Below, in pieces: positions 44,773-60,766 of a stretch of DNA of 64,000 bases (positions within the stretch are counted from its first letter, which is position 1; each line of letters begins with the position of its first letter). This DNA comes from a virus (lineage: Duplodnaviria > Heunggongvirae > Uroviricota > Caudoviricetes). The stretch lies in IMG/VR virus record IMGVR_UViG_2609459800_000001, one strand, 5' to 3'. The translations under genes and the position numbers were made by a program. Under the pieces are notes generated by a model. The model was given only the letters and a program-made list of their open reading frames with translations, was not told the origin of the DNA and ran no database searches.

Positions 44773-44976
44773 TTATAATTGAGCCGTGGCGTTAGTCAAC
44801 TACGAAGACGTGGCCATTACCTACTTAACCAGTTCCGCCAGGGCAGCAGAGTAGGTTTCATCTCGGATGTACCATGCCTGCATGTTTTCCAGAGAAGCCC
44901 GCGAGGTTCCCGGACAGGACTCTGCCATTGCGATAGATTAAATGCAATAACCTAAAAGCGATAACGTGGTGGAAAA

Positions 44977-45614
44977 ATGTTCATCAGAGCTTATTTAAGG
45001 GCATCAACGGAAGATCAGTTTGCCGATCGGGCAAAAGAGATGCTGGGGCAGTTTGTTCAGGAGCGGGGACATAAAATAGCCAGTTACTACCGGGAGAACA
45101 TAAGCGGTACAAAACTCGACCGCCCGGAACTGGGACGCTTACTGATGGACAGCCACCGCAATGATATTTTACTGGTCGAGCAAATTGACCGCCTGACCCG
45201 TCTGAGTAACAGTGACTGGATTACGCTGAAAAAGCAGATAGAACAACACGAACTGCGGATTGTCGCCTGGATGTATCCACCTCATGGCAGGCGCTGTCAG
45301 ATAAAGACCCTTCGCAGGCTGACCCAATCACCCGCGCCGTGATAACCGCCATCAATAACATGCTTATCGACCTGATGGCCGCGATGTCGCATAAGGACTG
45401 GCTGAGCCGTCGCCAACGGCAACAACAGGGAATTGAACGGGCTCATACGCTGGGTAAATACCGGGGATAACAGGCCGATCAGGAACGGCATCAGAAAGTC
45501 CTGTACTACCGGCAGGTCAAGAAACTAAGTATCCATGAAACGGTAGATGCGACAGGGTACAGTCCTTCACAGATATGCCGCATTCAAGAGAGCCTGAATC
45601 GGAATAAAAAGTAG
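44977..45614 (+). pseudogene. serine recombinase (resolvase) pseudogene, frameshifted and interrupted by a stop
   Basis: N-terminal catalytic domain MFIRAYLRASTEDQ (track ORF 44977..45342); continuation in another frame ...DPITRAVITAINNMLIDLMA...GKYRG, TAA stop, then HTH-like LSIHETVDATGYSPSQICRI. Confidence 0.6.
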
Positions 45615-45713
45615 CCCTGGCGTTAATGGATTACCTTTCCAGGCTAAGCTCATTGCTCCTGTCAGATACGCAGCCCTGCCTGTAATAATACAGACTGGGC
45701 AATGTGTTGCCAC

Positions 45714-46115
45714 TCAGGCTGACAACTGTCGGAGGATATCCGCTGTATTATAATGAGCCCGTTTTTCTATATATTTCCCGTCCTTCAGAGTGATCATAAA
45801 TATCAGAGAAAAGCGCACTTTCCTGCCGCTGGCAGGATGCCCAAGGAATTCACGGGTCTGCACGCCTTCAAAGATAAGATAGCAGGCGACTTTATCGTCT
45901 CTGGCAAAGATTTCGTGGATACGCATTGTAAATCCCGGAAAAGCATCCATATGGCCTTTTTCCTGTACGATAAACTGCTCACTGTTCAGCGGTGTATCCA
46001 CCTGAGAATAGAATTTAAAATCCGGATGGCAGAGGTTTTTCACCTCATCATATTTATTTTCTTCAATCAGACGATAAAACTTTTTAACCGTTTTGATATT
46101 TTCTTCAACAGACAT
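45714..46115 (-). CDS. SnoaL-like / NTF2-fold protein
   Basis: ORF track 45714..46127; start set at MSVEENIKTVKKFY with GAGGTG upstream. Confidence 0.5.
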   Translation of the reverse strand: MSVEENIKTVKKFYRLIEENKYDEVKNLCHPDFKFYSQVDTPLNSEQFIVQEKGHMDAFPGFTMRIHEIFARDDKVACYLIFEGVQTREFLGHPASGRKVRFSLIFMITLKDGKYIEKRAHYNTADILRQLSA

Positions 46116-46123
46116 ATTGCACC

Positions 46124-47113
46124 TCATTTTTCAGTTTCTTTACCTGCCGGAATATTGCCTGCCGGCGTTCCGTTAAATGTTTTTCGCCATTCACTGGGAC
46201 TGACTCCCATCCGCTGCCGGAATATCTGCCGGAAAGTAATGGTGGACTGAAAGCCTGCCAGTTCGGCAACCCGCTCCACTGCAATATCTGTACTTTCCAG
46301 CAGTTCCTGACTCCGCCGGAGACGCTCTGTGGTGATCCACTCCCAGACCGTCATTCCTGTGGCCGAATGAAAATGGCGTGTAAGCGTTCTTCGGCTCATG
46401 GAGGCTAAATGGGCCAGAGTGTCAATATCATGTGGTAATCCCAGATTTGCGGACAGGTATTCCAGCAGCTGGTTTATGCGGTTATCGGACGTACTTTTGG
46501 GAATAAGCAGTTGCCGGTACTGTGCCTGTCCGCCTTCCCGGTAAGGAGGAGCAACCATCCGGCGGGCTATTTGATTAGCCGTATATCTGCCCAGGCGTTG
46601 CCGGATCACATGGAGACAACAGTCCAGTGCTGCGGCTGTACCGGCTGAGGTGATAATCCGCTCGTCCTCAACATAAAGCACGTTCACGTCCAGATGAACC
46701 GCCGGGAAAAGCATCTGGAAATCCCGTTCAGCCTCCCAGTGCGTGGCCGCCCGTTTACCATCCAGCAGACCGGTGTAAGCCAGAACAAAACTCCCCAGGC
46801 ACAGGCCCACCACCTGAGCTCCATTTTTCCAGGCTGCAACCAGGGCACTGAGCAGAGTTTCAGAAGGCCTTTCATGGATGTGTTTCCAGAAAGGAATAAT
46901 AACGATATCGGCCTCTGCCAGTGCATCAAGCCCGTATTCTGCCCTCATCGCCGTACCTTCAGCAGACCAGATAAGCCCGGGCTCTTCCGCACATACCCGG
47001 CGGCTGAAGAGAGCCTTCCCTTCCAGTATCTCCCCGAACAGGATTAGTGGAACGGAGACATGAAATGTACTGAACCCTTCGGTGATCACTATAGCGACAG
47101 TGATGGTGGACAT
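46124..47113 (-). CDS. GlxA-family transcriptional regulator (DJ-1/PfpI domain plus AraC-type HTH)
   Basis: ORF track 329 aa; C-terminal AraC HTH (RRTLTRHFHSATGMTVWEWITTERLRRSQELLESTD). Confidence 0.65.
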   Translation of the reverse strand: MSTITVAIVITEGFSTFHVSVPLILFGEILEGKALFSRRVCAEEPGLIWSAEGTAMRAEYGLDALAEADIVIIPFWKHIHERPSETLLSALVAAWKNGAQVVGLCLGSFVLAYTGLLDGKRAATHWEAERDFQMLFPAVHLDVNVLYVEDERIITSAGTAAALDCCLHVIRQRLGRYTANQIARRMVAPPYREGGQAQYRQLLIPKSTSDNRINQLLEYLSANLGLPHDIDTLAHLASMSRRTLTRHFHSATGMTVWEWITTERLRRSQELLESTDIAVERVAELAGFQSTITFRQIFRQRMGVSPSEWRKTFNGTPAGNIPAGKETEK

Positions 47114-47128
47114 GCCATGGCCTCCGGG

Positions 47129-47905
47129 TTAAATCGTAACTGATTCACCATCAGCAGGAACGGCAACTGACGCCTGGATCTGGTTATCGCGGGCATATTC
47201 CAGCAGTTCCTGACGGGTCAGCAGACAGTGGTTTACGGCCTCCATGTGCGTTGCCACAATCAGTGCCTCTGGTACGATACGATGGGCTTTCAGGACATCT
47301 TCCCTGCCGAAAATAATGGGGCCGAATCCGAGAACATGCGCCCAGCCCGTATTCATAATAACGACGCCAGGATTGAACCGACGTAAATTATCCTCTACAG
47401 CCTTGATCCAGATGGTATCCCCGACCAGATAGAGCGTTTTTTCGGACGGATGCTGGAAGACCACCCCACAGGCATCCCCAAGGATTGCTGCGAGTTGCGG
47501 GTTAGCATAGGCTTCGTCCGAACCATGCTGACAAACGGTTTTAATAAGTGAAATTTCGCCAAATGTGCTTTTGTCAGACAGAATAACAAGGTTGCTGAAG
47601 CCCTGGGAACGCAGGATCTTTTCATCATGTTCATTCTGAACATAAATCAGTTTATCTTTCGGGATGTGCGCAACAGCCGCTTCATCCCAGTGGTCAGGGT
47701 GTGTGTGGGTGACAATAATGGCATCCACATCCAGCAGTACATCAAGGTCAAAAGGCAGCTCAGTCATCGGGATGCGGATATCTGACCGGGCCGTTCCTTC
47801 GAATCCCGGATAGGCTTCTTTTTTCGCAAGCATCGGATCGACAAGAAATTTTTTACCAGCGTAAGAAATGAGTTGTGTGGCGTTACGTACCTGGATGATC
47901 TTCAT
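47129..47905 (-). CDS. MBL-fold metallo-hydrolase
   Basis: ORF track 258 aa; THTHPDHW metal-binding motif. Confidence 0.65.
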   Translation of the reverse strand: MKIIQVRNATQLISYAGKKFLVDPMLAKKEAYPGFEGTARSDIRIPMTELPFDLDVLLDVDAIIVTHTHPDHWDEAAVAHIPKDKLIYVQNEHDEKILRSQGFSNLVILSDKSTFGEISLIKTVCQHGSDEAYANPQLAAILGDACGVVFQHPSEKTLYLVGDTIWIKAVEDNLRRFNPGVVIMNTGWAHVLGFGPIIFGREDVLKAHRIVPEALIVATHMEAVNHCLLTRQELLEYARDNQIQASVAVPADGESVTI

Positions 47906-48120
47906 TTTAGCAAGTCCTGTATTGGTTAATAACCATCAGAGCCATATCATGATGGCCTAATGTGATAATTATGATTAAATCAGGCCTGCCTGCCACTGAA
48001 ATAATGCCATATTTGGATGATATCAGGCCATTCTTCTGGCTCTCAGGTTTCAGGAATATGTCTGCTGAAAGCGGGTACAGATCTGACGCATTGAAGGGAA
48101 GTATCGTCCTTTAAGGCTTA

Positions 48121-48510
48121 TTGATGTCAGCCAGTACAAAAAATCATCTTAACGTACAATATCTTCCGTTTCCCAAACGGAGCCCACCAACGACGGAGGA
48201 ACGGCGCGTCGCCAATGCTCTTGGCGCTCTCCCCTGCATTGCCTGCTATATGCATGGAGTAATATCTAATGAGGTGTCTCTGCACCATATCGCCGGTCGT
48301 ACCGCGCCGGGTTGTCATAAAAAGCAATTGCCACTTTGTAGATGGCACCACCAGCATGCAGCTCCGGCGGAAGTAAGAGAAAAATACCCATGGCTGGTCC
48401 CTGTTCATGCCGATGGTGTGGTTGGAGGCAAGAAAGAATTCACCTTGCTGAACAAGTCAGAGATGGAGTTACTGGCTGACGCCTATGAGATGGCAAATAT
48501 CATGCACTAA
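48121..48510 (+). CDS. HNH-motif protein (possibly Ref-like)
   Basis: ORF track 129 aa; CIACYMHG...HHIAG...CRWHH. Confidence 0.4.
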   Translation: MMSASTKNHLNVQYLPFPKRSPPTTEERRVANALGALPCIACYMHGVISNEVSLHHIAGRTAPGCHKKQLPLCRWHHQHAAPAEVREKYPWLVPVHADGVVGGKKEFTLLNKSEMELLADAYEMANIMH

Positions 48511-48698: not shown

Positions 48699-49340
48699 AT
48701 GGATAAGAAAATATGCGTTGTTTCAATGAGCGTCGGCAAACCGGCGTCAATGACTGCTGCATGGATCAACAATGAGCTGATAATGGCTGAGCGGACCAGC
48801 TACCCTGAACGCCGCCGCGATATGGAACTCCAGCTGCTGCGCGAATTGCGAGAAAAAGAGGAAAAGGGTTTTATCGTGCTGGTGGAAGAGGAAAACAGCT
48901 TTATTACCGGTCAAGTTGGCCAGCGTGTAAGGTTGCGTGATCCCTTCATGAACGGCAGACCGGTACTGATTGAAGCAATGCAGATTTACAAGGAATTGGA
49001 ACGCCAGAAAGCGATCAAGTTACCGCGCAAGGAATCCGGCAAATACATCCTTCACCAAAGCATCTTCGATTCCGAACACGATAAAAAAGGCGATGAATTT
49101 TTCAACATCAACTGGAGCGAAATAACGACAGAGCATGTTCTGACGTTACTATGTTGCTTTGCGACGGAATACAACAACGTTGCCAGCGCCGACTACATCA
49201 GGGCAATGGCTGGAGAAGTTGAAGCCCGCCAGGAACCATCGTTACTAAGTCCACTTATTAACATAATTCTGGGTACCCAGACACTGGAACAAAAAAAAGT
49301 GCCGAAAGGGGTATTAACAGGCAAGCATAATTATTTCTAA
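48699..49340 (+). CDS. hypothetical protein
   Basis: ORF track 48672..49340; start set at Met 10 (MDKKICVVSMSVGK). Confidence 0.4.
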   Translation: MDKKICVVSMSVGKPASMTAAWINNELIMAERTSYPERRRDMELQLLRELREKEEKGFIVLVEEENSFITGQVGQRVRLRDPFMNGRPVLIEAMQIYKELERQKAIKLPRKESGKYILHQSIFDSEHDKKGDEFFNINWSEITTEHVLTLLCCFATEYNNVASADYIRAMAGEVEARQEPSLLSPLINIILGTQTLEQKKVPKGVLTGKHNYF

Positions 49341-49506
49341 TAATTTATAGTGGGGACTTTTGATGGTGTAAAACCCCATGAATTATTATTTTTTAGTTTT
49401 TTGATTCTATTTTTTTTGCATTACCCGTCATAAAAATGAGCTTGCTTACATAATAGAAAATTATTTTATCAACACTATTACAACAAACGATTATCACTGA
49501 TAACAT

Positions 49507-49530
49507 GAGTCCTTTGAAAACAAAGGACTC
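49507..49530 (+). promoter_or_regulatory. perfect 10-bp-arm hairpin 8 nt upstream of GNAT start codon
   Basis: GAGTCCTTTG-AAAA-CAAAGGACTC then ACCATACT-ATG; no obvious SD between. Confidence 0.4.
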
Positions 49531-49538
49531 ACCATACT

Positions 49539-50147
49539 ATGTCTAATACCTCGGCAAATGAAATTGTACCGCACTTACCGCTAATTTTCGAAAATGAAGC
49601 TAATGGGATTCTTCAGGATCTGGCCTATACTCCATCGCTTATGGGGTTGATGATGTTCCCGACAGAAGAGGAGCTGAAAGCAGCGAGAAGCTACATAATT
49701 AACGTTTTTGAAGAGTGTTACCGAGCCGGTCATTTGCGCATTATGGGCTTTACTAATGAAGAAAACTTGTTCGGATACGCCTTAATCTTCGGACATCCAT
49801 CGGGAAATTTTCCGTTGTACTGTCATAAAATATATGTATATGAGCAATATCGTGGTAATGGACTTGGAAGTAATATACTGGCAGAAATACTTGCATTTCC
49901 AAATGAGGTCGCTTTGATTTGCCAGTCTGATTTGGTTCCTTTTTATGAATCAGCCGGAATGCACTTTAAAGGAAATTACACCACTCCATCAGTCGCCAAT
50001 TTCAAAAAAACTCGCGGCATGTATGAGGGGCTTTGTTTGATGAGCACTGAAAAAAATGCAAACTCTAATGGTGTACCTATATTCATGCTGAACGATAACG
50101 ATATTGATAACATCATACAGGCTATCGCATCATCGGCACCACGATAA
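49539..50147 (+). CDS. GNAT-family N-acetyltransferase (AT-rich accessory gene)
   Basis: ORF track 202 aa; acetyl-CoA motif YVYEQYRGNGLGSNIL; AT-rich gene and 200-bp AT-rich upstream region. Confidence 0.55.
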   Translation: MSNTSANEIVPHLPLIFENEANGILQDLAYTPSLMGLMMFPTEEELKAARSYIINVFEECYRAGHLRIMGFTNEENLFGYALIFGHPSGNFPLYCHKIYVYEQYRGNGLGSNILAEILAFPNEVALICQSDLVPFYESAGMHFKGNYTTPSVANFKKTRGMYEGLCLMSTEKNANSNGVPIFMLNDNDIDNIIQAIASSAPR

Positions 50148-50229
50148 TATTAATAATTCATCTCGCCGCAGGAACTACAAACCAGTTGATTGTTTGTGAA
50201 ACGCCCGGTGCAAACCGGGCCAACAAAAC

Positions 50230-50478
50230 TCAATCAGCATTTAGTAGCAGAGCATTATCTATGATGATCTGCTCCCATTCTTCGAATGCCCGGTCGCGGA
50301 CGCCCTGGGGAACGCTGTTTGTTTTGAAATCGACGACCGTCCGCCATTTTCCGTCAGGACGGTACATGCGCAGAGCTTTACTTCCCCCTTCCCTGCGCAC
50401 CTCAACGTTATGCTTGTCAGCAAACTCTTGTAATGCTCGTAGCGTCCCATGCTTTACTGTGTAGTATCGCTTTTTCAA
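50230..50478 (-). CDS. small basic protein (possible lxc/bof-like position)
   Basis: ORF track 82 aa. Confidence 0.35.
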   Translation of the reverse strand: MKKRYYTVKHGTLRALQEFADKHNVEVRREGGSKALRMYRPDGKWRTVVDFKTNSVPQGVRDRAFEEWEQIIIDNALLLNAD

Positions 50479-50915
50479 GTTTTATCTCCAGCCTGTGCTA
50501 AGGCTTCAACTTCCAAATCGTAAGACTCAAACTCATAGTCCTGGTCGTCAACTTCTTCAGGCACTGGCAGTAAATGCCAGGCTGAGTATATCTGACCATT
50601 ATCAAAACGCTCCTGGCTGTAGAGCGTCGCGGCTATGAGTGTTAGCGCCGGGCGGTCATAACGGTAAATTTTGCGAACGTCACGGTCAACGAGACGACCG
50701 AAATTACCATAACCGCGCTCCAGTAATAATTTTTTAATTTCCGGCCAGTATGGACCATAGCTGCGGTACAGGCGGGGATTTTTCAGTAATCGCCCGCGTA
50801 GCCCTGACAGGAAGAAATCAACGTATTCGTCTTCTGTTTTTCCTAACAACGCTGTACGGAGTACCGCCTCAAGATATGTTTTATTCGGTTTTATTGTATC
50901 AGATAGTGTGACCAT
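50475..50915 (-). CDS. hypothetical protein
   Basis: ORF track 146 aa; stop overlaps next gene start. Confidence 0.4.
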   Translation of the reverse strand: MVTLSDTIKPNKTYLEAVLRTALLGKTEDEYVDFFLSGLRGRLLKNPRLYRSYGPYWPEIKKLLLERGYGNFGRLVDRDVRKIYRYDRPALTLIAATLYSQERFDNGQIYSAWHLLPVPEEVDDQDYEFESYDLEVEALAQAGDKT

Positions 50916-50948
50916 ATTATGCGACGCCCGGCGAACCGGGCGCTCCTG

Positions 50949-52316
50949 TTATGCGTATTGTTGGATGACGGCCAGAACGTCCGACACGTTGTGTTTTGTC
51001 TCGATAATCCACCAGTTGCCCGGGAAATCGCTGTTCTTCGCCTTCGCTGGCACCCAGCGAGCGCCGAATTTTTCCTTGATTGCGTCTTTAGCACGGAAAA
51101 GAACGCCTTTCATGCCGGACGCCTCCTGAAGCCCAAATACCTCGCCAGCGGCGAATTTTGGTGCGTACATCATCTTCAGGTCGGCGGTGGATACGCGATA
51201 ATTCAGACCAAGAGACTGAGCTATGCTGGTGGCATCACCCTGTATTGATGATAACTCTTCTTGTTTCTCGTTTCTGGCGGCAATTTCTTCCTCCGTGATG
51301 TTGCCAAGGGCCAGGTTTATCCGATCAGCGTCGGCCTGTTTCTCTTCATCGGTGCGCCCGGCAAGAACCGTGTTAATTCTCTGCAATATCTCCACATGAT
51401 TCTTGCGCATGCTGAGCAATTCCGGCGTAACATCGTTAAGATCCACCAGCCCAAGGATGGCAAGGTCGGAAAACATTGATACCAGGTTGTAGGTCATGCG
51501 ATAGCTGAGTTGGCTATAGGCTGATGGCAACTGCACCGCATCCATTTGATAGGCATCCATAAATTTAGAGCCGTCGTTTACGACATCCGCAATTGCCGGT
51601 GTGATTTTCCCTGTGGTGGCGGCCTCCCTGATTGCTGTTACCCACGATTGAGTCAGCGCGGCGACTGCATGATTCAGATTGGCTTTCCGTTCTGCTGCAA
51701 TGCGCGCGCTTGCTGCGTCCATTGCCTGCTTGATCTCGTCTTTATTGCTGTAAATGCCAATGGGACCAAACTGTGTTGTGGTGATCTCATAATCTGACGC
51801 CCGGAACTCATTGGTACCGAAAATGGCATTGGTGACCTCAAGTTCAGAATCCCCGTTACGAGTAGCCCCCTGACTTGTTTTCTCCGGCATTTTTGCGATC
51901 GCATCCGCTATTTTCTCCTGAATTGCTTCAGGGGATAGCGTATCTCCGTATGACGCGATTACATCGCTATAATTGGATCCAAACAGTTCAGTCAGGAATA
52001 CTTCTGCCAAACGGACCTGGCGGTTATTCCCTTCCGACATCATACCAAGCACCCATTTAGCAATTGACGACTTCAGCGCGCCGTCACGGCGATCCGGGTA
52101 AACCGCATGCTTCAGTGGGTCCGTATAGGTACCAACAAAATCAATGCTATAGCCTGACTCTGTAGTCTGAACGCCGTATGAGTCAGTGATTTTGATCATG
52201 CCGCGCTGCTGGAAACGGTAGAAATCGTCACAGGAAATGATGTCGTTAATCCCGGCGATGGAGACGCCACCACTGATTTTCTGCATAACAGCATCTTCAT
52301 CGGGAGTTACATCCAC
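50949..52316 (-). CDS. hypothetical protein, possible C-terminal portion of a disrupted DarB-like gene
   Basis: ORF track 455 aa; lies downstream (same strand) of the interrupted methyltransferase/helicase ORFs. Confidence 0.3.
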   Translation of the reverse strand: MDVTPDEDAVMQKISGGVSIAGINDIISCDDFYRFQQRGMIKITDSYGVQTTESGYSIDFVGTYTDPLKHAVYPDRRDGALKSSIAKWVLGMMSEGNNRQVRLAEVFLTELFGSNYSDVIASYGDTLSPEAIQEKIADAIAKMPEKTSQGATRNGDSELEVTNAIFGTNEFRASDYEITTTQFGPIGIYSNKDEIKQAMDAASARIAAERKANLNHAVAALTQSWVTAIREAATTGKITPAIADVVNDGSKFMDAYQMDAVQLPSAYSQLSYRMTYNLVSMFSDLAILGLVDLNDVTPELLSMRKNHVEILQRINTVLAGRTDEEKQADADRINLALGNITEEEIAARNEKQEELSSIQGDATSIAQSLGLNYRVSTADLKMMYAPKFAAGEVFGLQEASGMKGVLFRAKDAIKEKFGARWVPAKAKNSDFPGNWWIIETKHNVSDVLAVIQQYA

Positions 52317-53070
52317 CTGTTATCCAGCGTCTTCACATCCCAGTTACCCGATTTGGTGCCTTTGAAGGTAAAGATGATCTCCACGTCTGCGCGCTGGCTG
52401 TCGAAGTCCAGCGACTTAATGCGAACGATATCACCGGCACAATCGTAGTATTGGCCTACACGCCATGAGCGATCGCCGATAACAAGGAACTCACTCGCAT
52501 GGTTAACCAGGTCAGGATCAACATCCAGAATGCCTTTATTTATTGCATCCTCCACCAGTGGGCGCAGGCGTTTGATATCCGTCGCGGCCTTCTGAGTACG
52601 GTTCAATAATTTCTCATAGCGGGAGATGGCTTGAGAGATATTAGCCTTGCGCTGAATGGCGCTTTTCAACGACGCGCGATACTGTGCTAACAACATACGG
52701 TCTGTGTGATGGACACTCCCCCAGCGGGCCTTCCAGTCTGCGTTATCAGCTGCTTTGGCCATTACCGCCTGTTTGAATTTAGCTACCTCGGCGGTGGTCT
52801 TTTCAAATTCCGCTTTGCTTCGCTCTAATTCAGCGGTAAGTACCTCCACATCCTCACCAGCTGCGTGCTGCGCCTTGATGTAGTTCTGAAGGTCGATAGT
52901 AGCCTGTTCTTTCTGGCGAGCGCGTTGCGCGGCTTTCGCCTTATCCATTTGAACCTGCATCATTGCCAGACGTTCACCGTCATCCTTCGCGGTATACATC
53001 TGCATTTCGATCATATCATTGGCGTCGGCGTTCTCCATTTCTGACTTATCTGAACGGAGGATATCGGAGA
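52307..53070 (-). pseudogene. ORF fragment truncated at left inverted repeat (part of disrupted DarB-like gene?)
   Basis: Track ORF 52307..53098 starts on TTG inside the repeat; frame is open right up to the repeat boundary. Confidence 0.35.
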
Positions 53071-53309
53071 TCCTGGGCTTCGTTTGGGAAACGTACAATA
53101 TTGTACGGTTGCGCTATTGCGGTAGGGTGTACTCCAACGCTATACGGTCTTTGGCAGACCTTTAGGGAAATGAGATAAGCTAAATGCGATAAGAGAAAAG
53201 CAATAACTTAAAGGCAATAGCTGATTACGATAAATCAATCAGTTACTTATCAGTATCGATTAAAAAATGCTCCTAACGTACAATAATTTCCGTTTCCCAA
53301 ACCGACCCC
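53071..53309. repeat. left copy of ~240-bp inverted repeat (MITE-like, short terminal inverted repeats)
   Basis: Near-perfect reverse complement of 56729-56968; each copy bounded by GTTTGGGAAACG...CGTTTCCCAAAC. Confidence 0.8.
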
Positions 53310-53320
53310 TAATAGCCGGA

Positions 53321-53500
53321 CTACGGACGCGCAATAATTCGCCCCTGACTTTCCAGCAGTTGGTAAGCATGTCCGACGGTCATGAAGCTCATGCCGCTGC
53401 TGGCGACCTGTTCGCGCAGTGACGGCAGACGATCGCCGGGTCGCCAGACGCCAGAGGCGATCTGTTCGCAAAGTTGTTCAGCCAGACGCTGGTATTTTTT
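53321..53500 (-). pseudogene. N-terminal fragment of a GntR/MocR-family regulator (winged HTH), no start codon, truncated after ~60 codons
   Basis: Minus-strand translation KKYQRLAEQLCEQIASGVWRPGDRLPSLREQVASSGMSFMTVGHAYQLLESQGRIIARP then stop next to the repeat. Confidence 0.5.
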
Positions 53501-53670
53501 ATTCTGGTTTCTCGTCGGTCAATGCAGGTGAGCCTCGCAGTGTATAACAGTGAATAAAATTCACAACGATTTGCAAACTGTTATGGTTAAATATGTCTGT
53601 TCTGTTTCTGCCCCTCATTGCCTCACACGCTTAGAATTGCGCTGAATCAATTTTTAATGCGGAGTCAGGC

Positions 53671-55071
53671 ATGTTTGGTCTTGATGCGTATCACCTGGCA
53701 AGGATCCAGTTCGCCTTTACAGTTTCATTTCACATTATCTTTCCGGCGATCACCATTGGGCTTGCCAGTTATCTGGCGGTGCTGGAAGGCCTTTGGCTAA
53801 AAAGCAAAAATCCGGTCTGGCGCTCGTTGTACCACTTCTGGTCAAAAATATTCGCCGTAAATTTCGGCATGGGCGTGGTTTCCGGTCTGGTGATGGCCTA
53901 TCAGTTCGGCACCAACTGGAGCGGTTTTTCGGAATTCGCAGGCAGTATTACCGGGCCGTTGCTTACCTATGAGGTGCTGACCGCTTTCTTCCTTGAAGCC
54001 GGATTCCTCGGGGTGATGCTGTTTGGCTGGAATAAAGTCGGTCCGGGTTTGCATTTCTTCTCAACCTGCATGGTGGCGCTTGGCACCCTCATTTCCACCT
54101 TCTGGATCCTGGCGTCTAACAGTTGGATGCAAACGCCGCAGGGGTTTGAGATCGTCAACGGCCAGGTTGTGCCCGTGGACTGGTTCGCCGTTATCTTCAA
54201 TCCTTCGTTCCCTTATCGGCTGCTGCATATGTCCGTCGCCGCATTTCTCAGTAGCGCGCTGTTTGTCGGCGCTTCGGCAGCCTGGCATCTGCTGCGCGGC
54301 AACGCAACGCCAGCCATTCGCACGATGTTTTCCATGGCGTTGTGGATGACGCTTATTGTCGCGCCGGTGCAGGCGTTAATCGGCGATATGCATGGGCTGA
54401 ACACCCTGAAACATCAGCCAGCCAAAATCGCCGCGATTGAAGGTCACTGGGAAAACCCGCCGGGTGAGCCCACGCCGCTGCTGCTGTTTGGCTGGCCGGA
54501 TATGGAACAGGAACGCACCCGCTATGGACTGGCGATCCCGGCGCTGGGAAGCCTGATCCTGACGCACAGTCTGGATAAACAGGTTCCGGCGCTAAAAGAA
54601 TTCGCCAAAGAGGATCGCCCTCACTCGACGATCGTGTTCTGGTCGTTTCGCATCATGGCCGGCCTGGGCATGTTAATGATCCTGCTAGGGCTCTGTGCGC
54701 TCTGGCTGCGCTACAGGCAGCGCCTCTACACCTCGCGCCCGTTCCTGCGCTTTGCGCTATGGATGGGACCCTCGGGGCTCATCGCCATTCTCGCGGGCTG
54801 GGTGACCACTGAGGTCGGACGCCAGCCGTGGGTGGTGTACGGTTTACAGCGTACTGCCGACGCGGTGTCGGCCCACGGCGATTTACATATGAGCATTTCG
54901 TTGCTCGCTTTCTTTGTTGTCTACAGCTCAGTCTTTGGCGTCGGCTACAGCTATATGATTCGCCTGATCCGCAAAGGCCCGCTGGAAGATGATTCCGCGC
55001 CGCCGCCGGGCACACCCGCCAGGCCGCTTTCCGCCGCCGTCCTCGATTCTCAACATAAGGCACATCGCTAA
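53671..55071 (+). CDS. cytochrome bd-type ubiquinol oxidase subunit I (short Q-loop, CioA-like)
   Basis: ORF track 466 aa; MFGLDAYHLARIQFAFTVSFHIIFPAITIGL..., GRQPW motif; lacks the long Q-loop insert. Confidence 0.8.
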   Translation: MFGLDAYHLARIQFAFTVSFHIIFPAITIGLASYLAVLEGLWLKSKNPVWRSLYHFWSKIFAVNFGMGVVSGLVMAYQFGTNWSGFSEFAGSITGPLLTYEVLTAFFLEAGFLGVMLFGWNKVGPGLHFFSTCMVALGTLISTFWILASNSWMQTPQGFEIVNGQVVPVDWFAVIFNPSFPYRLLHMSVAAFLSSALFVGASAAWHLLRGNATPAIRTMFSMALWMTLIVAPVQALIGDMHGLNTLKHQPAKIAAIEGHWENPPGEPTPLLLFGWPDMEQERTRYGLAIPALGSLILTHSLDKQVPALKEFAKEDRPHSTIVFWSFRIMAGLGMLMILLGLCALWLRYRQRLYTSRPFLRFALWMGPSGLIAILAGWVTTEVGRQPWVVYGLQRTADAVSAHGDLHMSISLLAFFVVYSSVFGVGYSYMIRLIRKGPLEDDSAPPPGTPARPLSAAVLDSQHKAHR

Positions 55072-56081
55072 TGGGTATTGATTTATCGGTTATCTGGTTT
55101 GTGATCATCGTTTTCGCCACGCTAATGTATATCGTGATGGATGGATTCGATTTGGGTATTGGCATTCTGTTTCCTGTCACACGAAACGCAGAGGATCGTG
55201 ATGTGATGGTCAATAGCGTCGCGCCGGTGTGGGACGGTAATGAAACCTGGCTGGTGCTGGGCGGCGCGGGGCTGTTTGGGGCTTTCCCGATGGCCTATGC
55301 GGTTATTATCGATGCGCTGACCATTCCGTTGACGCTGATGCTGATCGGACTGATTTTTCGCGGCGTGGCCTTCGAGTTTCGCTTCAAGGCCACGCCAGCC
55401 CACCGCCCATTTTGGGACCATGCTTTTCTCGGCGGGTCGATTCTGGCTACCTTCGCCCAAGGGATCGTGGTTGGCGCAGTGATCAACGGTTTCCCGGTGA
55501 CCGGTCGCAGCTACAGCGGCGGGCCGTTCGACTGGTTAACCCCCTTCACTCTGTTCTGTGGCGTCGGACTGGTCGTTGCCTATGCGCTCTTAGGCGCAAC
55601 CTGGCTGGTGATGAAAAGCGAAAATCCGCTTCAGGATAAAATGCGCAGCGTCGCGAAAAAACTGCTGCTGGCCCTGCTGTTGTCAATTGCGATAATCAGC
55701 CTCTGGACACCGTTAGCGCATCCGGCGATCGCCGACCGTTGGTTTACGCTTCCCAACCTGGGCTATCTGCTGCCGGTTCCGGTGCTGGTGATCGCGTTCA
55801 GCGTCTGGTTATGGCGCACACTGGGTCGTCCGGAAAACCACACGTTTCCGTTTGTGCTGACGCTCGGGCTAATCTTCCTTGGTTTCAGCGGCCTGGGCAT
55901 CAGTATCTGGCCGCACATTATTCCGCCTTCGGTTACCCTCTGGCAGGCAGCCGCCCCCGCCCAGAGTCAGGGGTTTATGCTGGTCGGTGCGCTGCTCATC
56001 ATTCCGGTGATTTTGGTGTACACCTTCTGGAGTTACTATGTGTTTCGCGGCAAAGTGCAACATGGCGAGGGGTATCACTGA
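55071..56081 (+). CDS. cytochrome bd-type ubiquinol oxidase subunit II
   Basis: ORF track 336 aa polytopic membrane protein; ATG overlaps subunit I stop. Confidence 0.8.
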   Translation: MGIDLSVIWFVIIVFATLMYIVMDGFDLGIGILFPVTRNAEDRDVMVNSVAPVWDGNETWLVLGGAGLFGAFPMAYAVIIDALTIPLTLMLIGLIFRGVAFEFRFKATPAHRPFWDHAFLGGSILATFAQGIVVGAVINGFPVTGRSYSGGPFDWLTPFTLFCGVGLVVAYALLGATWLVMKSENPLQDKMRSVAKKLLLALLLSIAIISLWTPLAHPAIADRWFTLPNLGYLLPVPVLVIAFSVWLWRTLGRPENHTFPFVLTLGLIFLGFSGLGISIWPHIIPPSVTLWQAAAPAQSQGFMLVGALLIIPVILVYTFWSYYVFRGKVQHGEGYH

Positions 56082-56209
56082 TGCAACATTCTCTCTGGAA
56101 ACGCCTGATGTGGCTGGTCATCCTTTGGGGCGGCAGCGTGTTGGCGCTGGCGGCGGTGGGCATGTTTTTTCGCCTGCTCATGACTGCGGCGGGGTTTAAA
56201 GCGCATTAA
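56081..56209 (+). CDS. CydX-like small membrane subunit (42 aa)
   Basis: ATG overlaps subunit II stop (TGATG); MQHSLWKRLMWLVILWGGSVLALAAVGMFFRLLMTAAGFKAH; below ORF-track cutoff as an independent ORF. Confidence 0.5.
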   Translation: MQHSLWKRLMWLVILWGGSVLALAAVGMFFRLLMTAAGFKAH

Positions 56210-56313
56210 GCGGACACCTCGCCGGATGTCGGCTTTGGGCCAGGCGTTAACCGGCGGAAATAAATACCAACACAAAGGCCCGGTAAACGCCACCGGGCTG
56301 ATGTCGCAAAGGA

Positions 56314-56728
56314 TTAAGGTTTACGCTTCGGCAGCGTTTTCATCAGATCTTCCGGACTGACGGAACCCACCACGCTGCCCGGCAGCGGCATTTTAAGAAT
56401 GTGATCTTCAATCTTGCCGATAACGTGCATTTCACACGGGCGACAGCCAAATTTCAGCGTCAGCACCTCATCACCGTTGACCAGTTGCATTGGCGTCGCT
56501 TTCCAGCTTTTGATGTTACCTTTCGCCTGTTTCGGGCAAAGATTAAAGGCAAAACGCAGGCAATGCTTGGTGATCATCACAGGCACATCGCCCTTTTCTT
56601 GATGCGCTTCATACGCCGCGTCGATCAACTGTACGCCATAACAATGGTAGAACTCACGCGCCTTCTGGTTATAGACGTTTGCCAGAAAACTCAGATGCGT
56701 CTGCGGGTAGACCGGCGCGGGATCGGAG
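56314..56728 (-). pseudogene. 3' fragment of a larger gene truncated at right inverted repeat (function unassigned)
   Basis: Track ORF 56314..56628; frame stays open upstream (…PDPAPVYPQTHLSFLANVYNQKAREFY…) to the repeat boundary with no start. Confidence 0.4.
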
Positions 56729-56968
56729 GGGTCGGTTTGGGAAACGGAAATTATTGTACGTTAGGAGCATTTTTTAATCGATACTGATAAGTAACTGATT
56801 GATTTATCGTAATCAGCTATTGCCTTTAAGTTATTGCTTTTCTCTTATCGCATTTAGCTTATCTCATTTCCCTAAAGGTCTGCCAAAGACCGTATAGCGT
56901 TGGAGTACACCCTACCGCAATAGCGCAACCGTACAATATTGTACGTTTCCCAAACGCAGCCCAGGTAC
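56729..56968. repeat. right copy of ~240-bp inverted repeat
   Basis: Reverse complement of 53071-53309. Confidence 0.8.
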
Positions 56969-57594
56969 GCGTTTTTAATTGCCATATCCCGCGCCGATTG
57001 CGCCACCGCGCTGGTGGGCAGATAGGCCAGTTGTGACGCTTCGCGACCATTTTTATAGCTATTGCGGTAGTTGTGACCTTCGTCGGCGATCACACTATCG
57101 AAGCCCATATCCTCAAAGTACGGATACTTCTCTGCTTTTTCGGTGCCGGTATCTGAATACTCCGACAATACCCGGCGACGCGCGGCCTCTTTGCGGTGGG
57201 AGTCGGAGTCCATTGCGCTGGCTACGCGCCCGGCAGCAACGAAGTCATAAAGCATATCCTGTGCATGCTCATCTACGGTGTCATCACGTAGCGGAATGCG
57301 GGCGTATTGTTCTTTGGTAAACACGACTGCACGGTAATTTGAGTGCGGGATTGCATTCATACGTGCCGTGATAGTGGCTTCATCTGCCAGTTTAAGGGCA
57401 TCGCGCATAACTGGAGTGCCATCAGTACCAAGAACAGGTTTACCGTTCTCATCGAGCACCGGCACCTGGCGAATCTGATCGCCATCCATCAGCACATCAA
57501 GACCGACAAACAGGTAGTTACTGAATGCCTCTTCACTCAGGAACTCTTTTGCTTCGTAATACCAGTTTTCCAGCACTGATTTATATTGTCTCAT
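56969..57594 (-). pseudogene. DExH helicase-motif ORF truncated by the inverted-repeat insertion (DarB-like)
   Basis: Track ORF 56872..57594; SVIADEGHNYRN (motif II-like); C-terminal 30 residues are encoded by the repeat. Confidence 0.45.
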
Positions 57595-57970
57595 TAAAAA
57601 CGCCGGTGCCCGCCGATGGTTCCAGAGTGTTACCTACGTCCGCGCCATAGAGGTTCATGATCTCCCAGACGCCTTCAGCGATAGGCTTTGGTGTGTAATA
57701 TTCGGAGACGGACCCGCCAATGCCGCCTTCGCCGGTGTACCCAGCCAGGATCTGGCGCTGTTCATCTGTCAGTGTCGCGCCATCCACCAGCGAATTAAGC
57801 AAATCTATCGCCTTCTGATTCGCCTCCCGGCGCAGCCGGTCATAGCTTTTGCCTTCCACCTTTTCCACGCCGTATCTAATCGGCGCTCGATGAGATGTTA
57901 TTGCCCTAATGTATTTCAATATTTCGCTGACACTTGAACAGCGAAACACCCCCATAGATAGCTTGTTCAT
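57581..57970 (-). CDS. N6-adenine methyltransferase-like N-terminal domain (DarB-like)
   Basis: ORF track 129 aa; SAM-binding-like LEPSAGTGVF; overlaps next ORF by 14 bp in another frame. Confidence 0.4.
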   Translation of the reverse strand: MNKLSMGVFRCSSVSEILKYIRAITSHRAPIRYGVEKVEGKSYDRLRREANQKAIDLLNSLVDGATLTDEQRQILAGYTGEGGIGGSVSEYYTPKPIAEGVWEIMNLYGADVGNTLEPSAGTGVFNETI

Positions 57971-58032
57971 TGGTAATCCTTAACAAGTGATTAGTGTTAA
58001 ATTCCGTTCAAACACGATGCGAATTATTCTAA

Positions 58033-60766
<2,734 letters not shown>

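Follow-up and report, generated by a model that had tools for sequence, protein, structure and literature searches.

The DarB protein of phage P1 is a 2255-aa methyltransferase-helicase that is packaged in the capsid. It inhibits type I restriction by EcoK and EcoB (PMC9024508; also the P1 record's own note), and its N-terminal 30 residues constitute a capsid-targeting signal (PMC9024508). In the TIME composites (TIME-COMPs; Szuplewska et al. 2014, PMC4133298; Gomi and Yano 2026, PMC13367494), two inverted transposase-less elements of less than 300 nt with 38-nt Tn3-type ends enclose foreign genes. These units have a reported size range of 1-11 kb, one described example lies in a phage-plasmid, and catalogues to date cover them only for antibiotic-resistance genes (PMC13367494). 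A described element of this kind is MITESen1, the 256-nt TIME of Salmonella (ISfinder). The CIO short-Q-loop oxidases, such as CioAB of Pseudomonas aeruginosa, form a further described system to which the locus reported here can be compared.

The window, i.e. the whole 64,000-nt stretch of DNA that was analysed, is a P1-like IncY phage-plasmid of E. coli. A minus-strand locus in it is darB, the antirestriction gene, now a pseudogene in four pieces. We consider it highly probable that one joint explanation accounts for this locus, namely a darB pseudogene interrupted by a TIME-bounded composite with an oxidase cargo and further damaged by a 2267-nt deletion and a frameshift. Four minus-strand ORFs (57581-57970, 56872-57594, 52307-53098 and 50949-52316) match the 2255-aa DarB of a relative, L001, at aa 1-128, 886-1092, 1549-1798 and 1801-2255 respectively, with 97.6-99.6% identity (blastp). 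The intact homologue in L001 is a single CDS of 6768 nt, 98.1% identical in DNA to P1 darB. The remnants, the two lesions between them and the genes downstream are as follows:

57584..57970, minus strand: darB 5' remnant, codons 1-129 (blastp aa 1-128, 97.7%)
57583..57584, no strand: junction of a clean 2267-nt deletion; L001 5625-7891 missing, codons about 130-885
56963..57583, minus strand: darB middle remnant, aa 886-1092, with a DEGH (DExH) helicase motif (blastp 99.5%)
52322..53073, minus strand: darB remnant, aa 1549-1798 (blastp 99.6%; L001 homology stops at 53073)
52320..52321, no strand: 1-nt deletion, TTT to TT in a T run; frameshift at codon 1799, in the 3' part of darB
50949..52319, minus strand: darB 3' remnant, aa 1801-2255, reaching the native stop (blastp 97.6% across 455 aa)
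50475-50915, minus strand: ulx, intact, 146 aa, same size as P1 ulx; downstream of darB
50230-50478, minus strand: lxc, intact, 82 aa, same size as P1 lxc; downstream of darB

The order of the neighborhood, lxc-ulx-darB-prt-pro, is that of P1 as judged by ORF sizes and order against the P1 record, with darB between ulx and prt; the ulx and lxc proteins are also annotated in relatives. Upstream, at the place of PdarB in P1, the darB strand still shows promoter-like matches. A first-pass annotation of this DNA had already recognized a split and internally deleted DarB-like gene with about 3.1 kb of coding sequence against about 6.7 kb in DarB, and the alignments agree with it closely: 3131 of 6768 nt (46% of the gene) are still present, distributed over four pieces and two frames. 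It had also allowed that the ORFs might correspond to separate intact genes in relatives. Every one of them is indeed open, at 129-455 aa, but they are collinear with one 2255-aa protein that is encoded by a single continuous ORF in P1 and the relatives examined. Moreover, about 450 PLSDB plasmids, in which both sides of the 2267-nt deletion junction match separately, retain the DNA that is deleted here, two of the ORFs begin or end within a repeat, and PGAP calls the fragments incomplete or frameshifted. The alignment to intact DarB thus refutes the idea of four separate functional genes, to which we attach practically no probability. With 3131 of 6768 nt left, in four ORFs, the gene is a pseudogene of the DarB family and not a functional member; RefSeq already marks the fragments as pseudogenes.

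In intact DarB the Pfam N6_Mtase (and Eco57I) matches cover aa 145-289, the SNF2/ResIII match region begins at aa 833, and Helicase_C spans aa 1455-1517. The 5' remnant keeps the 30-residue capsid-targeting signal, as in P1, and stops short of the methyltransferase core, which falls inside the 2267-nt deletion and is therefore absent. The ORF at 57970-57581, previously read as an N6-adenine-methyltransferase-like domain, is accordingly the N-terminal leader of DarB, and a Pfam search with this 129-aa ORF gave no match. The DExH motif that had been assigned to the next ORF is genuine, as VIADEGHNY is found in the middle remnant, which PGAP labels in RefSeq as 'helicase; incomplete; missing N- and C-terminus'. 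The SNF2/ResIII region has nevertheless lost its beginning, which precedes the retained aa 886-1092, and Helicase_C is deleted as well; a complete SF2 helicase is therefore absent even though the DEGH motif stays. In contrast to P1 DarB, neither catalytic module survives, be it the methyltransferase core or the C-terminal domain of the helicase. Given these missing domains and the published P1 genetics (PMC9024508), virions of this phage-plasmid would be predicted no longer to deliver DarB, leaving incoming DNA unshielded from EcoK/EcoB-type restriction.

Three lesions are present in darB: a replacement by a foreign element, the 2267-nt deletion and the 1-nt deletion. The proposal that the gene was inactivated by insertion plus deletion is thus upheld in a more detailed form, as a 3888-nt element (53075-56962) stands in place of 1366 nt of darB (codons 1093-1548) alongside the other two events. 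The ORFs reach the repeat boundaries, as had been noted, and read on mechanically into the repeat; darB homology itself stops at 53073/53074 and restarts at 56963. Base 53074 is T here and A in the relative, which makes the left junction ambiguous by 1 nt. The overlap of the first two ORFs is likewise real. It results from the 2267-nt deletion, whose junction lies in the interval 57581-57594 where a small indel had been suspected. As the junction reads TTTATTTTG in L002 and in L008, a plasmid near-identical to the window, the deletion contains no filler; a T-to-A substitution at 57585 lies beside it. This junction is present in only 1 of 460 matching plasmids in PLSDB. A second suspected indel, at 52307-52316, proved to be the 1-nt deletion in the T run. 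It is shared by the window, L008 and L003 and absent from L002, indicating that the frameshift postdates the insertion. The comparisons thus establish the breakpoints and the order of some of the events.

The element in darB is bounded by an inverted repeat of 239 nt with one mismatch (53072-53310 and 56727-56965), the sole repeat of at least 60 nt within the 64-kb window. The arms of this repeat contain two copies of a small element:

53075..53309, plus strand: left TIME, 235 nt; terminal inverted repeats of Tn3 type, 38 nt each, and a res-like segment inside
56728..56962, minus strand: right TIME, 235 nt, inverted relative to the left copy, GGGC end outward

The copies are identical at 234 of 235 positions, and the two ends of the element match each other at 29 of 38. 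Its inner end, GGGGTCGG...ACGTTAGG, matches both the IRR of MITESen1 and the inverted repeat beside a full tnpA in L089 at 32/38, as against just 18/38 for Tn3 itself, and both outer ends start with GGGC rather than the canonical GGGG. The interior aligns to the tnpA-tnpR intergenic (res) region of full-length Tn3-family transposons whose inverted repeats match at 32/38; these occur on enterobacterial plasmids and are candidate partners. No tnpA-sized ORF and no transposase was found anywhere in the window. The 235-nt element is a TIME, derived from the Tn3 family but without a transposase of its own, and related to MITESen1. Against the MITESen1 reference sequence (PMC13367494, Table S2) the likeness runs from end to end, including the region of the res-like TGCGATA/GCAATA motifs. 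Nevertheless, only 176 positions in 262 aligned columns are identical (about 67%), the length is 235 instead of 256 nt and one end reads GGGC; the element is a relative of MITESen1, and identity with it is ruled out. Its family, matched by 2015 records, is widespread among enterobacterial plasmids.

Between the two TIMEs lies a segment with an intact oxidase operon and two truncated genes:

53324..53485, minus strand: divergent GntR/MocR-type regulator gene, 5' part only, truncated by the left TIME (mapped to the window from L008, where PGAP calls a pseudogene)
53671..55071, plus strand: cytochrome bd oxidase subunit I, 466 aa, intact, short-Q-loop (CIO-like) (Pfam PF01654, E 3e-169)
55071..56081, plus strand: cytochrome bd oxidase subunit II, 336 aa, intact (Pfam PF02322, E 1.5e-101)
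56081..56209, plus strand: DUF2474 small protein, 42 aa (Pfam PF10617, E 3e-15)
56314..56727, minus strand: collagenase-like protease gene, 3' part only, truncated by the right TIME (PGAP pseudogene in L008)

Both PF01654 and PF02322 are matched at full length, and subunit II scores above the cut-off of TIGR00203 (cydB); subunit I falls below the NCBIfam equivalog cut-offs for subunit I of E. coli bd-I and bd-II. The protease-fragment ORF gave no match in the Pfam search. When subunit I is aligned to E. coli AppC, AppC residues 318-380 have no counterpart, i.e. the Q-loop insert of about 63 residues is missing. H21, E101, H186 and M329 of subunit I align opposite H19, E99, H186 and M393 of AppC, which we take to be the known haem ligands, so that the counterpart positions are conserved. 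The closest solved structure is presumably that of E. coli bd-II (AppCB). The subunit I/II Pfam domains, the haem-ligand positions, the missing Q-loop insert and the downstream DUF2474 gene are all shared with the CIO oxidases, although the oxidase here is plasmid-borne and its cyanide insensitivity is putative. The host would, judging from these sequences, gain an extra terminal oxidase.

The cargo is foreign to the replicon that carries it. It was not found in P1, nor in other P1-like plasmids among the matches listed, and its GC content is 55.6% as against 48.6% for the window. The same segment, ending exactly at the inner ends of the TIMEs (53310-56728), occurs without TIMEs in IncF plasmids, and the full regulator gene (PLP-dependent aminotransferase family) is present in such a TIME-free context in L004. 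The cargo is also syntenic with Citrobacter chromosomes at about 80-83% nucleotide identity, with 96% amino acid identity in subunit I, and Citrobacter provides the closest chromosomal relatives of the cytochrome bd operon.

Among 5426 complete E. coli genomes, the whole structure turned up in just two. As assemblers can be misled by inverted repeats, the 239-nt repeat might in principle have generated it as an artefact; however, the structure and its junctions are identical in two complete plasmids that were sequenced independently, one from Mexico and one from the Galapagos, and the darB-TIME junctions recur in 28 further plasmids from three genera. These independent assemblies contradict an artefact, which we regard as extremely improbable. 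The 28 plasmids carry a rearranged derivative (L003-type; three checked). In these three the cargo faces the other way, one repeat has been lost, and the surviving TIME is a recombinant in which the SNP of the left copy adjoins the right inner flank. The occurrence of the cargo in both orientations in nature, along with the res-like stretch in the TIME, could suggest a programmed invertible switch for darB or the oxidase. This is very unlikely, since there is no recombinase gene in or beside the segment, the sole tnpR in the window is frameshifted, darB is broken whichever way the segment faces, and the opposite orientation is seen only in the derivative that has lost one repeat.

In its two inverted elements with 38-nt Tn3-type ends, its size of 3.9 kb, the two orientations of its interior (as in the TIME244 tet(A) unit) and its location in a phage-plasmid, the unit in darB resembles the TIME-COMPs. 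It differs in carrying a respiratory oxidase operon instead of a resistance gene, and its TIME is none of the listed TIME244, IS101, IMU and MITESen1. No 5-bp direct repeat surrounds it (left flank ATCCT, right flank AGGTA), which is likewise the case in published IMU units. This counts against transposition of the whole unit, and we infer the route of arrival; the composite was not found at any other site. The 3888-nt composite consists of two inverted 235-nt TIMEs around a 3.4-kb segment captured from an enterobacterial chromosome, and it probably entered darB by transposition, with the Tn3-family transposase provided in trans. The 1366 nt, together with one copy of the target duplication, may then have been taken out by an adjacent deletion, the usual result of intramolecular replicative transposition. 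The segment between the TIMEs could subsequently invert through recombination of TIME with TIME, and the loss of codons about 130-885 and the later frameshift at codon 1799 are further lesions.

Alternatively, the composite might never have moved as a unit: TIME copies or a TIME-mediated cointegrate could already have been in darB, and the oxidase segment could have entered by homologous recombination between TIMEs on two replicons, with 1366 nt lost in the exchange. The missing target-site duplication, the 1366 nt absent between the junctions and the abundance of the TIME family on enterobacterial plasmids are consistent with such a route, and TIMEs demonstrably recombine, as seen in the inverted cargo and recombinant TIME of the L003-type plasmids. 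However, the matches listed include no P1-like plasmid whose darB holds a single TIME, and more independent events are needed than for insertion with an adjacent deletion. We accordingly consider this route rather unlikely and favor insertion of the composite followed by adjacent deletion.

By itself, the broken darB is an ordinary case of an accessory phage gene decaying. It suggests a lineage that persists mostly as a plasmid, or whose hosts make type I restriction irrelevant. The more useful find is the agent, an unannotated Tn3-derived miniature element that belongs to a family in about 2000 plasmid records and here surrounds a respiratory oxidase operon. The composite adds energy metabolism to the cargo range of TIME composites, and it does so within a transducing phage-plasmid. 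A far-reaching interpretation, which we offer as a doubtful speculation, would be that the unit is an active trans-mobilisable TIME composite, the first with a metabolic cargo, spreading a cyanide-, sulfide- or NO-tolerant cytochrome bd among enterobacterial plasmids and, by infection, via P1-like particles, with antirestriction traded for host-beneficial respiration.

In Salmonella, Shigella and E. coli, the fossil darB junction has also been carried into another plasmid backbone, which makes it a handy lineage marker.

The interrupted gene lies in a locus with the gene order and sizes of phage P1, namely lxc (82 aa), ulx (146 aa), darB, prt (569 aa) and pro. More than 1000 plasmids of E. coli, Salmonella and Klebsiella match the 7.9-kb darB region, and the top matches listed are non-mobilisable replicons of ~81-150 kb with phage genes, typed IncY in those examined. 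In the intact relative NZ_CP116245.1 (L001) the ulx-prt interval is one 6768-nt CDS, annotated 'N-6 DNA methylase', with 98.1% identity to the darB of P1 (NC_005856); the P1 record gives the role of that gene as defence against restriction, and its product as a putative adenine methyltransferase and helicase. The first-pass annotation had read four minus-strand ORFs as a split and internally deleted darB-like gene. All four were found, and their blastp matches to the DarB of L001 (2255 aa) are collinear on that protein, at 97.6-99.6% amino acid identity:

Surviving pieces of darB
57581-57970, minus strand: DarB aa 1-128, 97.7% identity
56872-57594, minus strand: DarB aa 886-1092, 99.5% identity
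52307-53098, minus strand: DarB aa 1549-1798, 99.6% identity
50949-52316, minus strand: DarB aa 1801-2255, 97.6% identity

Together 2125 + 621 + 385 = 3131 of the 6768 nt of darB are still present. The first of these ORFs had been taken for an N6-adenine methyltransferase-like domain, which has to be abandoned: in intact DarB the Pfam match to the methyltransferase core spans aa 145-289, and the 129-aa ORF, which has no Pfam match, is therefore the N-terminal leader. The RefSeq labels on the darB pieces read 'helicase; frameshifted; incomplete', and the remnant diverges from its relatives by 1-2%, the background level among P1-like plasmids. A darB pseudogene is in itself ordinary.

The lesions were mapped by nucleotide alignment to L001, which gives three collinear blocks:

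Collinear blocks
Window 50400-53073: L001 962-3636
Window 56963-57583: L001 5003-5624
Window 57584-58300: L001 7892-8609

This map bears out the earlier interpretation of a gene broken by insertion plus deletion, as it contains a foreign insert, a 2267-nt deletion and a 1-nt frameshift. The insert, window 53075-56962, stands in place of 1366 nt of darB (codons 1093-1548), a stretch that includes Helicase_C (1455-1517); the left junction is uncertain by 1 nt because position 53074 is T in the window and A in L001. The second lesion is a clean 2267-nt deletion of codons ~130-885, with which the methyltransferase core and the first part of the helicase N-lobe were lost. The length 2267 is not divisible by three, which is why the two upstream ORFs lie in different frames and overlap; thus the frame change suspected at 57581-57594 is real, but its source is the deletion junction and not a small indel. 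An alternative parsing of 57583-57586, in which 2269 nt were deleted and a 2-nt 'TA' filler was gained, is ruled out by the sister plasmids pEcoUTI1e (L002) and pMB06172 (L008), in which the junction reads TTTATTTTG and is clean, the T-to-A change at 57585 of the window having come later. The third lesion, the loss of one T from a TTT run at 52320-52321 (codon 1799), explains the frame change that had been flagged at 52307-52316. This frameshift is shared by the window, pMB06172 and plasmids of the L003 type (which carry a rearranged derivative of the structure), and is missing from pEcoUTI1e, and therefore arose later than the insertion and the large deletion. The decay of darB is stepwise, in a gene that was dead beforehand.

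The insert is bounded by an inverted repeat that the first-pass annotation had noticed and that proved real (53072-53310 and 56727-56965, 239 nt long with a single mismatch); no other repeat in the window reaches 60 nt. Each arm is a 235-nt element, the two copies differing at one base, 53080, and the ends of the element are 38-nt imperfect inverted repeats of the Tn3-family type (29/38; inner end GGGGTCGGTTTGGGAAACGGAAATTATTGTACGTTAGG, outer end GGGCTTCGTTTGGGAAACGTACAATATTGTACGGTTGC). A search for a transposase across the window returned none, nor any ORF of transposase size. Since the 235-nt element likewise has no coding capacity, it qualifies as a Tn3-derived inverted-repeat miniature element (TIME), and two TIMEs around other DNA qualify as a composite, TIME-COMP (both as defined in PMC13367494). 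Besides the TIMEs, the only Tn3-family material in the window is a decayed remnant in ref. This transposon (44800-48185 in the P1 ref gene, common to ~50 P1-like plasmids) holds a 36-aa tnpA stub and a frameshifted tnpR, followed by genes for a SnoaL-like ester cyclase, a GlxA/AraC-DJ-1 regulator and an MBL-fold hydrolase, and ends in a solo 38-nt terminal repeat (48148-48185; 33/38 against the TIME inner repeat).

The 235-nt TIME differs from every TIME whose sequence is listed in PMC13367494, the nearest being the 256-nt MITESen1 (176 identical of 262 aligned columns, with terminal repeats matching at up to 32/38). Enterobacterial plasmids carry full-length Tn3-family transposons that match the inner repeat at 32/38; in L089, for instance, such a repeat lies next to a 995-aa tnpA. 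The middle of the TIME (positions ~95-145; window 53169-53219) contains repeated TGCGATA/GCAATA motifs and aligns to the tnpA-tnpR intergenic region of the cognate full-length transposons. This alignment makes it likely that the TIME keeps part of the res site, its interior being a probable res remnant. By eye, MITESen1 has a matching TGCGATA/GCAATA stretch, and a recent survey reports for it no similarity to the classical Tn3, Tn21 and Tn1721 res sites. Plasmid records that match the TIME number 2015, of which 918 cover at least 80% of the element; the family is widespread, and it is unannotated. Another copy, 95% identical, lies at 6001-6235 of L007, an IncK2/Z plasmid that matches at three places; TTATA stands on one side of this copy and TTACA on the other, an almost perfect 5-bp duplication, which suggests that single copies of the family do transpose.

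Between the TIMEs lies an oxidase operon with truncated neighbours:

Contents of the cargo
First ~160 nt of a GntR/MocR-type regulator gene
Cytochrome bd subunit I, 466 aa, intact
Cytochrome bd subunit II, 336 aa, intact
DUF2474 gene, 42 aa
3' end of a collagenase-like protease gene

Judged from its sequence, subunit I is of the short-Q-loop, CIO-like type. Aligned to E. coli AppC it has no counterpart of residues 318-380, and its H21, E101, H186 and M329 stand opposite AppC H19, E99, H186 and M393, conserved positions that we take to be those of the haem ligands. It scores below the NCBIfam equivalog cut-offs for the E. coli bd-I and bd-II subunit I. The GC content of the cargo is 55.6%, versus 48.6% for the window. 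IncF plasmids hold the cargo DNA without TIMEs and with a complete regulator gene, and their similarity stops exactly at the TIME inner ends (window 53310-56728). The larger IncF segment is syntenic with Citrobacter chromosomes at ~80-83% nucleotide identity, and the C. amalonaticus subunit I is 96% identical to that of the cargo. No exact chromosomal donor was found among species representatives, and as the best of them (Citrobacter) reach only ~80-83%, the donor species lies outside that collection. The cargo thus derives from an enterobacterial chromosome near, but outside, the sampled Citrobacter species. In the IncF plasmid pEC213_1-OXA-181 (L004 3786-9603) a 5.8-kb Citrobacter-syntenic segment with the regulator, oxidase operon and protease genes ends at a Tn3-family terminal repeat adjoining a TnAs1-family transposase; this arrangement was probably the first route of the chromosomal segment onto plasmids.

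At the outer ends of the composite no 5-bp target duplication was found (ATCCT versus AGGTA), and 1366 nt of target DNA are missing between the outer junctions. Three further complementary nucleotides outside the TIMEs (CCT/AGG) are mostly darB sequence and probably due to chance. Intramolecular replicative transposition in the Tn3 family classically yields an adjacent deletion, in which the DNA from the element up to a nearby target is lost together with one copy of the duplication. The composite might instead have been brought in by homologous recombination between TIME copies on two replicons, which we regard as unlikely. Insertion plus adjacent deletion is the simplest account: the composite would have inserted with a Tn3-family transposase supplied in trans, and the deletion would have followed.

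The composite is a new member of the TIME-COMP kind: the recent survey does not name this TIME, the genes carried serve respiration instead of antibiotic resistance, and the carrier is a P1-like phage-plasmid. The flanking direct repeats that are a hallmark of TIME-COMPs are missing here, as they are from published IMU composites. Since, in addition, no other insertion site of the composite was found, we class it as structurally TIME-COMP-like and regard mobility of the whole unit as unproven. A literature search returned nothing on darB or P1-like elements with a cytochrome, on cytochrome bd in a phage-plasmid or on a plasmid-encoded cyanide-insensitive oxidase, and no paper describing the insert.

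P1 packages DarB, a 250-kDa protein, in its head, for which an earlier bulk measurement gave ~40 copies; DarB inhibits EcoK and EcoB, and the 30 residues at its N-terminus suffice for capsid targeting (PMC9024508). The region matching P1 PdarB is retained upstream, with promoter-like matches on the minus strand, and a 129-aa peptide with the targeting signal is the most that the remnant could yield. Within the first 30 residues this leader differs from L001 by I6M (57953-57955) and F26S (57893-57895); DarB residues 6-10 have been reported as important for packaging. Neither enzymatic domain can be present in the remnant, and any virions that are still made are therefore predicted to be sensitive to type I restriction. 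The host would gain a third or fourth terminal oxidase, with putative expression and a truncated cognate regulator. A consensus promoter scan gave a weak site upstream of subunit I (53560-53587), which we do not count as evidence for expression.

Among 5426 complete E. coli genomes, the structure is present in full in two, on pEcoUTI1e from a uropathogenic strain (Mexico) and on pMB06172 from Galapagos seawater. The 2267-nt deletion junction is present in one of 460 matching plasmids in PLSDB; the others match its two sides separately and therefore retain the deleted DNA. A derivative structure was found in 28 further plasmids of E. coli, Shigella and Salmonella; the four inspected are all typed IncHI1B, and alignments to the window cover three of them. 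The derivative has its cargo reversed relative to the darB 3' remnant, and its remaining TIME has the left-copy SNP beside the right inner flank, which proves that the two copies recombined. The deletion that removed the second TIME, across the 9-nt microhomology TCGCCGGGT, also took 204 nt from darB and 122 nt from the cargo. In the two derivative plasmids whose flank on the far side of the insert was examined, it holds a RelE/Phd toxin-antitoxin pair and an autotransporter gene; these are not P1 genes, and thus the oxidase-bearing P1 fragment has moved to another backbone. In L003 (4741-11373, for example), L091 and L092, plasmids of Salmonella Infantis, Shigella and E. coli, this fossil P1 fragment comprises darB pieces, the oxidase cargo, one TIME, ulx and lxc.

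The mat-lxc interval (49219-50232) is variable: P1 has the EcoP1 res-mod genes there, the window a GNAT acetyltransferase ORF (49539-50147), and the two plasmids most closely related to the window, pEcoUTI1e and pMB06172, a DUF2971 gene.
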